A stretch of 64,000 nucleotides of DNA from Alphaproteobacteria bacterium (GTDB lineage: Bacteria; Pseudomonadota; Alphaproteobacteria; MPNO01). The notes beneath the pieces were generated by a model. It was not told the origin of the DNA. It searched no databases and saw only the letters and a list, made by a program, of their open reading frames with translations. Positions within the stretch are counted from its first letter, which is position 1. Each line of letters starts with the position of its first letter. Shown here piece by piece: positions 146-2,537 of this stretch. A program made the position numbers and the translations under genes. The stretch is from NCBI GenBank assembly GCA_964291675.2, contig OZ219866.1, positions 2,336,001 through 2,400,000 on the forward strand. The letters are read 5' to 3'.

Positions 146-433
146 GCGCGGCTCTCTCCGCCGTCGCCCCTACTCCCCACCGTCATTTCGACCGAAGCGC
201 GGAGCGCCTGCATGACGGCGGGGTAGGCGTGCTTCCGGTCTTCGACCTCCCACTTCCGGAAATGATCGCCGCAGACGTTGGCCAATCCCGGCGCCAGGCA
301 CAAGACGGCAACGGCCAGCAGAGCCTTCCGCATGGTTCTTTCCTGTGTCGGTCGCGACGCCGGCTCGTGCCGGGCCGTTGCATGCGACACACAGGATGCG
401 AGACCCCGCCCATTCGCTAGCCCGCATTTCCCG

Positions 434-2416
434 GTGCGCCGTGGAAAGGCGCTGTTCCTCAGCGGGTGCGAACCCCGCCCGGCAACTGTCGCTCCGGCCG
501 GTAGCAATCGGGGCGGTTGAAGGAGGCAACGACTTCGGCTGAAGCACTTCGATGCGACGGGCCGCCTTGGGCGGCTCAGCGACCATGCGGGCCGCAACGC
601 GAGTGAACGCCGAGCAGGCCTCGAAACGGGCGATGCGGAGGCCGACCCGCCTGAGAAACGGGGAAGGCTGTAATCGGTCGGGAAGCGAGCGACGCGCGCA
701 CCGGCCGGCTCCGCCGGGGTAGTGGCGGCGGCACGCATGGAAGAGGGGGACGGTGGCAACACGGGAAGCCCTGACGGTGGCGTGGCACGCGCCAACCGGA
801 ACCTCGCGAGGGGCAGGCCGGGCCGTCAGGGTGGCGGAGGGGCTTGTATTACCGCGGAAGCCGGGTAACGCCGGTGGAGGGAAGGAGCCCTGGTTCGAGA
901 GCGATGCGGGAAGGAGCGAAGGCATGGCCACTGGCGAGAGCCTAGCAGGGCCGGAGCGGGTTCGGAAACTCCAGACCGTATTACATGCGAAAGCCAAGGA
1001 AGAACCCGAGCGGCGTTTTCATTCGCTGATCGACAAGGTGTGGCGCGAGGACTTTCTTGCCGAAGCCTGGCGGCGGGTGCGCCGCAAGGGCGGCTCCGCC
1101 GGGGTGGATGGAGAGACGTTGGCGGACATCGAGCGATACGGCGTGGGGCGCTGGCTTGGGGAACTGGCGCGGGAACTGAAGGATGGAGCGTACACACCGA
1201 AGCCGGTACGGCAGGTGCTCATCCCGAAGAAGCAGCCCGGCAAGTTCCGGCCCTTGGGCATCCCCTGCATCCGGGACCGGGTGGCGCAGACATCGGCTCT
1301 GCTGGTGCTTGAGCCGATATTCGAAGCGGACCTGCAACCGGAGCAGCACGCCTACAGGCCGGGACGGAGCGCCCACGACGCGGTAAGGCGCGTCCACAGC
1401 CTGCTTAACACGGGGCACAACGAGGTGGTCGATTGCGACCTGTCCAACTACTTCGGCGAAATCCCGCATACCGAGCTTCTCAAGAGCTTCGCCCGGCGCA
1501 TTGGCGACGGGCGGATGCTCAAGCTCATCAAGGCGTGGCTGGAAATGCCGGTGGAGGAGGACGACGGCGAAGGCGGCAAGCGCCGCACGAACCGGGCGCG
1601 CAGAGAGCGGAAAGGCATCCCGCAGGGGGCGCCGATAAGTCCGCTGGCCAGCAACCTCTACATGCGGCGCTTCATACTGGGCTGGAAGGCGCTGGGCTTC
1701 GCCCGGCGCCTGCGTTCGGAAATCGTGAACTACGCCGACGATCTCTGCGTGCTCGGCAAGGCTCCGGCGGCGGAAATGCTGGCGGCGGTCGAGCGGCTCG
1801 TGGACGGTCTGAAGCTGGCGGTCAACGAACGCAAAACCCGATGCCTGCGGTGCCCGGAGGAGGCGTTCGAGTTCCTCGGATACCGTATCGGACGCAATTA
1901 TCGACCGCACGGGAAGGGCGCCTATATCGGCACCCGGCCCAGCAAGGCGAGCGTCCGGAGCATCTGCCGCAGGATCAGCGAGATGACGGCGCGGCGCTAC
2001 AGCCGGCAGCCGCCGGAGGCGATGGTGGAAAGCCTGAACCGGGTCATGACCGGATGGGCGAACTACTTCAGCCTCGGCCAGGTCAGCCCGGCCTACGGCG
2101 CGATCGACCGCCACGCGATCCGGCGGCTTCGCCGGTGGCTCTGTCTCAAGCACAAGGTGAGGAACGGGAAATACGTGCGCTTCCCGGACACGAGGCTGCG
2201 CGACGAATACGGCCTCACCCGCCTGTCGCCGAGGACCAGGGGCCTTCCGCATGCGAAGGCATGATCTCGTCCGAAAGCCGGATGCGGGAAATCCGCACGT
2301 CCGGTTTGATGAGCGGGGGCTGGAAACGCGGCCATGGGCGCCGGACTGAGGCCCGGTGCGAAAGCGCCGGATAAGCCACCGGACCCTAAAGCTGGCGCGC
2401 CAGTCCTCGACTCCAC
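434..2416 (+). mobile_element. Group II intron, apparently full length (probably bacterial class E-like)
   Basis: 5' GTGCG at 434; RT ORF inside; domain V GAAAGCCGGATGCGGGAAATCCGCACGTCCGGTTT at ~2273-2307 with AGC triad; domain VI ending CTCGACTCCAC at 2416; the flanks rejoin into a repeat seen intact at 35084. Confidence 0.93.
924..2264 (+). CDS. ltrA: Group II intron reverse transcriptase/maturase, no En domain
   Basis: RT0 KLQTVLHAKAK, GSAGVDG, IPKK..RPLGIP..RDRVAQ, GIPQGAPISPL, YADD, FLGY, X domain GWANYF; ATG 924 after GGAAGGAG. Confidence 0.95.
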   Translation: MATGESLAGPERVRKLQTVLHAKAKEEPERRFHSLIDKVWREDFLAEAWRRVRRKGGSAGVDGETLADIERYGVGRWLGELARELKDGAYTPKPVRQVLIPKKQPGKFRPLGIPCIRDRVAQTSALLVLEPIFEADLQPEQHAYRPGRSAHDAVRRVHSLLNTGHNEVVDCDLSNYFGEIPHTELLKSFARRIGDGRMLKLIKAWLEMPVEEDDGEGGKRRTNRARRERKGIPQGAPISPLASNLYMRRFILGWKALGFARRLRSEIVNYADDLCVLGKAPAAEMLAAVERLVDGLKLAVNERKTRCLRCPEEAFEFLGYRIGRNYRPHGKGAYIGTRPSKASVRSICRRISEMTARRYSRQPPEAMVESLNRVMTGWANYFSLGQVSPAYGAIDRHAIRRLRRWLCLKHKVRNGKYVRFPDTRLRDEYGLTRLSPRTRGLPHAKA

Positions 2417-2537
2417 CCCCTGTCATGGCCTGCGTCGCGCGCAGGCGTTCGATCCGTCAGGAGCGGGCCAAAAAGTTGGGCGTATCGGCCAAGAGATGTA
2501 TGCTCGCGGTGGTTGCAGAGACCAGAGAACGCTGGAG

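Follow-up and report, generated by a model that had tools for sequence, protein, structure and literature searches.

Does a group II intron that interrupts the terminal inverted repeat (TIR) of a short non-coding repeat have its natural home there? The question is raised by an intron at positions 434-2416 of a 64,000-nucleotide stretch of contig OZ219866.1 from an Alphaproteobacteria bacterium (assembly GCA_964291675.2). This whole stretch, referred to below as the window, corresponds to C2:2336001-2400000 of a two-contig genome that is 93.7% complete. Our answer is that the intron probably uses the TIR tip of a mobile, multicopy, non-coding miniature inverted-repeat transposable element (or MITE) of about 265 nt as its natural homing site, a reading to which we give a probability of roughly 0.85. 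An earlier reading of the window, hereafter the original prediction, had pointed the same way. It placed a group II intron in the TIR of a multicopy MITE, with empty relatives in the same window, and proposed that a mobile non-coding hairpin element serves as homing site. The placement is borne out by Rfam, by the intron-encoded protein (IEP), and by flanks matching 35080-35222 and 15321-15587; the empty relatives were recovered at 15322-15586 and 35083-35219. The proposed homing site agrees with the position of four of four intron copies in this genome and of one in the congener G009, all at the same place in the TIR, and with the presence of about 50 empty TIR-like sites.

A Complete Intron inside the End of a Repeat

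Group II introns have conserved ends, 5' GUGYG and 3' AY. The stretch 434-2416 starts with GTGCG (434-438), ends with CTCCAC at 2416, has identical ends in its four genomic copies, and is a complete group II intron, with ribozyme domains and an intact IEP. The Rfam scan identified domain I (RF02003 at 460-602, 82.3 bits for a gathering score of 49) as well as domains V and VI (table 1). In Pfam, the IEP matches RVT_1 (1.4e-30) and GIIM (8.3e-16) only; GIIM ends at residue 414 of 446, and neither an HNH endonuclease domain nor a DNA-binding extension was detected by Pfam past the maturase domain. The protein scores 317 bits with the NCBIfam model of group II reverse transcriptase (RT)/maturases (TIGR04416, cut-off 300), and its open reading frame (ORF) is intact, with the YADD motif, in all four genomic copies. 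According to the accessible part of the source, endonuclease-less IEPs make up classes C, D, E, and F (PMC4424553). The best plasmid-borne relatives of the IEP, 43-56% identical, come from Planctomyces, Bradyrhizobium, Microvirga, Paraburkholderia, and others. Among the matches listed, one from Sinorhizobium is 31.7% identical.

In the window, the intron is preceded by CTAG (417-420) and CCCGCATTTCCCG (421-433) and is directly followed, from 2417 on, by CCCCTGTCATGGCCTGCGTCGCGCGCAGGCGTTCGATCC... / CCCCTGTCATGGCCTGCG.... Mapping of the ends of the element puts the insertion point 14 nt inside the TIR. The 13 nt of the original prediction are right as the distance past CTAG, not as the distance from the end of the TIR. 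Downstream of the intron, the 24-nt stretch 2432-2455 is found again exactly at 35112-35135 (0 of 100 shuffles gave two matches), and 2417-2472 is complementary to 15517-15572 at 88%. The host MITE of the window is truncated: similarity to the family stops near 2489 and the far TIR is absent. Positions 168-2991 hold a small ORF on the minus strand, the truncated MITE and its intron, and some 500 nt of sequence unique to the segment. All of this is missing at the orthologous locus of three congeners (G010, G009, and G002), where window 1-167 adjoins ~2992 onward. The intron-bearing MITE remnant therefore sits in a strain-specific insert.

The Host Element

The inverted arms of the repeat are 39 nt long and 92% complementary in the element at 15321-15587, and 42 nt long in the one at 35080-35222. 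The predicted single-stranded DNA fold of the full-length copy at 15322-15586 is a branched hairpin (-131 kcal/mol, z -14). Searched with a 33-nt TIR consensus at no more than nine mismatches, the genome gives 53 matches: 50 empty sites and the 3' halves of three occupied ones. Matches to the family were also obtained in 10 of 11 congeners and one sister genus, their number ranging from 0 to 82 per genome.

Comparison with congeners revealed empty orthologous sites at three loci, each with a single TA. The MITE at 15322-15586 is absent in nine congeners, which read ...CCC TA CGG...; the locus of intron copy I4 is free of both MITE and intron in G009 (GTGC TA CGC); and the MITE at C2:2109020, present in this genome as TA-element-TA, is absent in G009 and G010 (GAC TA GA). 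These empty orthologues with a single TA fit insertion of the MITE at TA with duplication of the TA. Judged from its copies and their empty counterparts, the element is a mobile, non-coding, multicopy MITE inserting at TA. Among 12 full-length MITEs, TA is found on the left in seven and on the right in seven. The left dinucleotide is CA and not TA in four of the 12 (window 15320-15321; C2:1754516, 1523933, and 3480792), mostly members of the AGCCCGGA subfamily. Such CA left flanks, against TA in the empty orthologues, are not explained by a simple TA duplication, and the target-site duplication may be of a 4-bp CTAG type.

Could the repeat be a repetitive extragenic palindromic (REP)-like or structured-RNA repeat and not a transposon, with the intron targeting its conserved stem? 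The very stable, branched fold and the CA left flank of four of the 12 full-length copies would suit such a repeat. So would the missing parent: no transposase gene flanked by these TIRs was found in the genome in a search for DDE_3 (PF13358), the only transposase family searched, whose two matches are not TIR-flanked. However, a REP-like repeat accounts poorly for presence and absence with precise ends at TA at three orthologous loci, for numbers that vary from 0 to 82 matches among congeners, and for terminal inverted repeats of 39-42 nt; nor did the Rfam scan of the window match the repeat at gathering score. We consider this explanation improbable.

Four Introns at One Position of the TIR

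By blastn, the genome contains four full copies of the intron (I1-I4, I1 being the copy in the window), which are 99.3-100% identical. Alignment with the 12 full-length MITE copies places all four at the same TIR position of this one repeat family, and the sequence outside the MITE is unrelated between them. Intron copies in unrelated sequence would, in the terms of the original prediction, have spoken against it; none was found in the genome. EBS1, EBS2, and EBS3, the exon-binding sites (EBSs) described below, are identical in the four copies. The congener G009 has an intron of 93% identity in this position too, flanked 5' by ...CTAGCCCGCATGTCTCA and 3' by CCCCTGTCATGGCC....

The shared position and the shared element family would also be expected from a single entry into one MITE, followed by spread of the MITE-intron composite through transposition or segmental duplication. 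Introns I3 and I4, which are identical (0/1983 differences), agree with that scheme, but the MITEs that host them show 14 differences over 266 positions. Identical introns in diverged hosts show that I3 and I4 entered MITE copies that had already diverged, in independent retrohoming events and not by copying of a composite. Two further differences stand against a single entry. The 5' exons end variously in TTTCCCG, TTTCTCA, ATTCTCG, and CTTCTCA, and I1 lies in one MITE arm type whereas I2, I3, and I4 lie in the opposite one. Moreover, the intron parts the TIR tip from the remaining repeat, which should block a transposase. Spread as a composite is thus very improbable.

Beside these copies, an intron remnant of about 185 nt that keeps just both ends was found at G007:C107:10319-10500.

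Exon Recognition

We collected relatives of the intron from one genome per species. Of 571 confirmed stretches 80 were retained, and the search gave 76 loci (L001-L076), with IEPs 74-88% identical. From the mapped ends of these relatives, the 5' 495 nt of 35 unique introns were aligned and scored for covariation between EBSs and the intron-binding sites (IBSs) of the exons. In 20 of the 35 introns, one alignment column, identified as EBS1, forms six of six pairs with the final six bases of the exon; the runner-up column does so in four. At least six of seven EBS1 pairs are formed by 26 of 32 cognate intron-target pairs, versus 4.6% of 974 non-cognate ones, and the closing pair of the stem that carries the EBS1 loop covaries in 16 sequences. 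In a per-column scan, the EBS2 core pairs at four of four positions with exon -14 to -11 in 15 of 32 cognate versus 20 of 954 non-cognate pairs; an earlier EBS2 scan demanding six of six pairs gave none. EBS3 pairs in 32 of 35 sequences, all four types of pair occurring among them, and in 29 of the 32 without tandem-intron flanks. Covariation thus supports pairing of the EBS loops with the TIR, as the original prediction had expected. In terms of the TIR, EBS2 would read nucleotides 1-5, EBS1 nucleotides 8-14, and EBS3 nucleotide 15, and the TA just outside corresponds to exon positions -16/-15. The pairing of the window copy is imperfect: its IBS1 opposes EBS1 with a C.A mismatch at -3 and a G.U pair at -1.

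A different motif had been put forward as EBS1, namely CGGGAA at 679-684 and 762-767. The motif is present at both places but is not EBS1: it is invariant among relatives whose IBS1 sequences are unrelated, and the covarying loop is 652-658. Also recast is the role of the copy at 35084: it is an empty relative, as claimed, but its TIRs are poor targets (table 1).

When one site is counted per EBS type, T is found at -16 in 18 of 27 types and A at -15 in 15 of 27, for backgrounds of 16% and 24%; as the relatives are not independent, binomial values overstate the significance of this enrichment. The TA at -16/-15, conserved across retargeted relatives, is probably read by the protein or by the ribonucleoprotein (RNP).

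Group IIC introns have no EBS2 and insert just downstream of a stem-loop, unlike the intron described here, in which EBS2 is present and the insertion lies within the 5' arm. The presence of EBS2, together with the covariation of EBS1 and EBS3, argues for IIB-like and not IIC exon recognition; as deduced from covariation, recognition is of IIB type, with EBS1, EBS2, and EBS3. That a group IIC-type intron recognizes a DNA hairpin and not a sequence here, using the MITE merely as a hairpin, is hardly credible: in its favor, the closest solved relative of the IEP in the PDB is the IIC RT GsI-IIC (1.9e-46; weakly informative, as no class D, E, or F proteins were noticed in the PDB) and three relatives (L003, L068, and L069) lie directly after short hairpins read by eye, but EBS2 covaries with exon -14 to -11, EBS1 is 7 nt long, and the insertion is not downstream of the hairpin but within its 5' arm.

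Table 1. Intron, target, and host-repeat features in the window, and junctions of the four genomic intron copies
Feature	Position	Strand	Remarks
TA just outside MITE end, exon -16/-15	418..419	+	Likely target-site duplication and likely distal RNP recognition determinant
5' exon, MITE TIR nucleotides 1-14	420..433	+	Alignment of MITE copies and intron junctions; EBS pairing by covariation
IBS2, GCCCG	420-424	+	
Linker, CA	425-426	+	
IBS1, TTTCCCG	427-433	+	
Group II intron	434..2416	+	1983 nt; 5' GUGCG, 3' AC; Rfam and four genomic copies
EBS2, CGGGC	626..630	+	Core GGGC at 627-630, right after GAAAC; pairs with exon -14..-10; covariation
EBS1, UGAGAAA	652..658	+	Hairpin loop; pairs with exon -7..-1; covariation
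EBS3, G	722..722	+	Pairs with first 3'-exon base, C2417; covariation
IEP, 446 aa	924..2264	+	RT and maturase, no endonuclease domain; Pfam, TIGR04416
Ribozyme domains V and VI	2273..2416	+	RF00029, 41.9 bits (gathering 40); Rfam scan
3' exon	2417..2489	+	Rest of split TIR (IBS3 = C2417) and ~60 nt of MITE arm; blastn to MITE copies, junction listing
Full-length MITE, intact, empty	15322..15586	.	265 nt; flanks CA (15320-15321), TA (15587-15588); perfect intron targets in both TIRs
Short MITE-family variant, empty	35083..35219	.	137 nt; TA on both sides; weak TIR targets, 5/7 EBS1 pairs on both strands
Junction of genomic copy, row 1			left ...CTAGCCCGCATTTCCCG; right CCCCTGTCATGG
Junction of genomic copy, row 2			left ...ACCAGCATTTCTCA; right CCAGGGTCATGG
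Junction of genomic copy, row 3			left ...TTAGCCCGCAATTCTCG; right CCCCTGTCATGG
Junction of genomic copy, row 4			left ...CCAGCCCGGACTTCTCA; right CCCCTGTCATGG

Occupied and Empty Sites

According to the mechanism that we propose, the intron RNA would base-pair with TIR nucleotides 1-15, and the TA outside would be read by the protein or RNP. Each MITE would offer a site on either strand, two in all, and further sites would arise whenever a MITE inserts anew. The homing site may also be harmless, as the original prediction supposed. By analogy with the introns RmInt1 and RmInt2, the lariat RNP would reverse-splice into the DNA target, the cDNA would be primed by the nascent strand at the replication fork, and the split MITE end would be disabled. 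In the empty MITE at 15322-15586, the predicted target sites lie after 15335 on the plus strand and before 15573 on the minus strand, and on both strands they show seven of seven EBS1 pairs, five of five EBS2 pairs, and the EBS3 pair.

Several observations weigh against the TIR tip as the natural homing site. About 54 sites are available and just four are occupied. Twelve of the 50 empty sites, including both ends of the MITE at 15322-15586, pair at all 13 positions (eight of them without wobble), whereas perfect pairing is seen at none of the four occupied ones: six of seven EBS1 pairs form in I4 and, counting a wobble, in I1 and I3, and I2 has three of five EBS2 pairs and no TA. This imperfection is compatible with chance, (42/54)^4 being about 0.37; no preference for the best sites is seen. 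The hairpin whose stem contains the target is very stable, and in single-stranded DNA it would be a competitor of EBS pairing. Two of the host MITEs, those of I1 and I2, are truncated. The target-site duplication is clean at one of the three loci with empty orthologues (C2:2109020), the other two combining a left CA with a right TA, and the DDE_3 search described above yielded no parent transposase. Logan contigs of public runs speak neither for nor against empty alleles or spliced exons: among the 15 joints listed of 18, none was of the 433->2417 type that either would give. In run X1, the best match, one flank contig ends exactly at 433 and another starts at 2430. Contigs from RNA libraries match relatives of the intron and have no bearing on its transcription.

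Other metagenome joints (889->2259, 889->2336, and 601->2276) skip the ORF and suggest ORF-less derivatives; they are weak, with sides of 28-30 nt at 90% likeness.

The orientation of the copies relative to replication depends on where the origin is placed. The cumulative GC skew is very weak: across 180 windows it spans about 0.4, reaching its minimum near 3.36 Mb and peaking locally near 1.68 Mb. The dnaA gene is at 1.12 Mb. One of the four copies or three of the four would be on the lagging-strand template, depending on which skew extreme is chosen as origin, and the skew is too weak to place it.

Relatives of the Intron in Other Bacteria

The relatives were found in metagenome-assembled genomes (MAGs) labeled as Alphaproteobacteria, Gammaproteobacteria, Binatia, Nitrospinota, and Thermodesulfobacteriota, and also as Bryobacterales, Longimicrobiales/Palauibacter, Dehalococcoidia, and others. 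In four public runs (X1, X2, X19, and X21), the summed contig depth over the intron reaches hundreds to thousands, versus about 9 for the flank. These distributions suggest that a single intron clade may have spread widely by horizontal transfer in sponge- and coral-associated communities.

Their insertion sites are diverse. None of the relatives examined was shown to lie in a short MITE, several being at ends of full-length insertion sequences (ISs) or in host DNA, and an inverted copy of the -17 to +13 target (up to seven mismatches) was found in the available flanks of 0 of 66 relative loci. At L076:1008, in a MAG of Palauibacter (Gemmatimonadota), the 5' exon CTAGCCCGGATTTCTCA consists of the same 17 nt as the MITE tip, and EBS1 and EBS2 are nearly the same. 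This exon forms the left end of an element with a gene for a DDE_Tnp_1_4 (IS1380-type) transposase, which may hint at the family of the parent of the MITE. Three other introns (L050, L051, and L057) are found 17 nt within an element that has a DDE_Tnp_1 transposase, and that of L075 14 nt within an IS3-type end. T-16/A-15 persists even at apparently ectopic sites, among them L053, L055, and L059.

From such cases one might picture a clade specialized on the tips of transposable elements, its RNA reading TIR nucleotides 1-15 and its protein or RNP reading the T(A) of the target-site duplication, a generalization that we consider doubtful. Because other relatives sit deep in repeats, after small hairpins, or in host genes, insertion 13-17 nt inside IS ends is at most a tendency among them. 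Were the clade nevertheless specialized in this way, each transposition would create a complete homing site and each homing event would destroy an end of one transposon. As a hyperparasite, the intron would then both depend on MITEs and IS elements and throttle them. The clade would pass from phylum to phylum in the microbiomes of sponges and corals, its EBS1 and EBS2 being retargeted to whatever transposon ends are present locally.

Some relatives show structural peculiarities. Seven loci (L031, L041, L043, L044, L047, L049, and L064) are head-to-tail tandems, the 5' end of a further intron forming the start of the 3' exon; the L041 group has C as EBS3, and this C pairs with the first G of the intron. 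Copies truncated at the 5' end are present at L001, L002, L005, L032, and L033. At L006-L008, L012-L014, and L019, the position of the intron 5' end reads GCGCG or GCGTG, not GUGYG.

Comparison with Known Homing Systems

The presence of group II introns inside IS elements is classical. The closest precedent for the intron described here is RmInt2, which, in the accessible parts of the publications drawn on in this comparison, homes into both inverted repeats of ISRm17 (PMC4615759), so that sites are doubled and one is always on the lagging-strand template (PMC5894124, PMC4615759). Its target comprises IBS2 at -14 to -10 and a linker at -9/-8, with CTAGTTC selected at -16 to -10 (PMC4615759, PMC5894124). 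As far as these texts describe it, RmInt2 resembles our intron in lacking an endonuclease domain, in targeting inverted repeats with two sites per element on opposite strands, and in its layout of IBS2 at -14 to -10, a 2-nt linker at -9/-8, a 7-nt IBS1, and an EBS3/IBS3 pair (PMC4615759, PMC5894124). A CT(A) just upstream of IBS2, required by RmInt2, is a further point of resemblance (PMC4615759, PMC5894124). RmInt2 also forms tandem insertions, as do the head-to-tail relatives found here, and the EBS3 of the L041 group matches the explanation published for RmInt2, to the extent that it is set out in the text available. The two differ in their hosts, ISRm17 being an IS with a transposase whereas the host here is a non-autonomous 265-nt MITE; in the conserved T, at -15 in RmInt2 and at -16 here; and in the IEP, of 419 aa in RmInt2 and 446 aa here. 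In addition, the mobility of RmInt2 has been experimentally shown, whereas the present intron is known from sequence alone.

RmInt1 has its natural home in ISRm2011-2, of the IS630 family (PMC5894124, PMC4615759). Like our intron, it is described in these partial sources as an endonuclease-less IIB intron in a multicopy TA-duplicating transposable element; a distal T in the 5' exon is critical for its homing, which is biased to the lagging-strand template (PMC5894124, PMC4615759). Unlike our intron, RmInt1 is reported there to have a single site per IS, outside the inverted repeats, and a 1-nt linker. Group IIC introns share with ours a small RT-maturase protein without endonuclease and an association with inverted repeats, according to the available text of PMC1702495. 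For Pseudomonas putida, the accessible part of one report tabulates two of nine intron copies as REP-associated (PMC1525189).

Our search of the openly accessible literature on group II introns with MITEs or REPs turned up no account of such an intron that homes into a MITE, subscription papers and supplements being outside this scope. None of PMC4853749, PMC9769881, and PMC11602168, in the parts accessible, describes such a case. The strategy is known in kind, with RmInt2 as closest precedent; its new part is the non-autonomous MITE as host.

Other Repeats and Genes of the Window

A second palindromic repeat family, unrelated to the MITE and built on the core CCTCATCCTGAGTAGCGGCGAAGCCGCGTATCGAAGGAC and its complement, occupies at least four sites of the window (22299-22659, 32539-32674, 41068-41205, and 63822-63936). 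Four paralogous coding segments with 68-71% identity are found at 17704-18003, 25525-25824, 26681-26980, and 30666-30965. Repeat D17 encodes a CPYHGW-like motif, of Rieske type, and the segments may belong to a cluster of related oxygenase genes.

Significance

The locus presents an endonuclease-less group II intron that would live on a non-autonomous MITE, at base-pair resolution and with natural replicates; the nesting described earlier concerned transposase-encoding ISs. The roughly 27 naturally retargeted EBS types and their cognate sites define a recognition code for this lineage, made up of a 7-nt EBS1, a 4-5-nt EBS2, a 2-3-nt linker, EBS3, and T-16/A-15. This predicted code could be useful for targetron-style engineering and for intron annotation in MAGs. 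A natural brake on MITE spread would result if a MITE end is disabled when the intron splits it. From RmInt1, group II introns have reportedly been proposed to control mobile DNA, and for such control of mobile DNA by an intron this genus offers many genomes.

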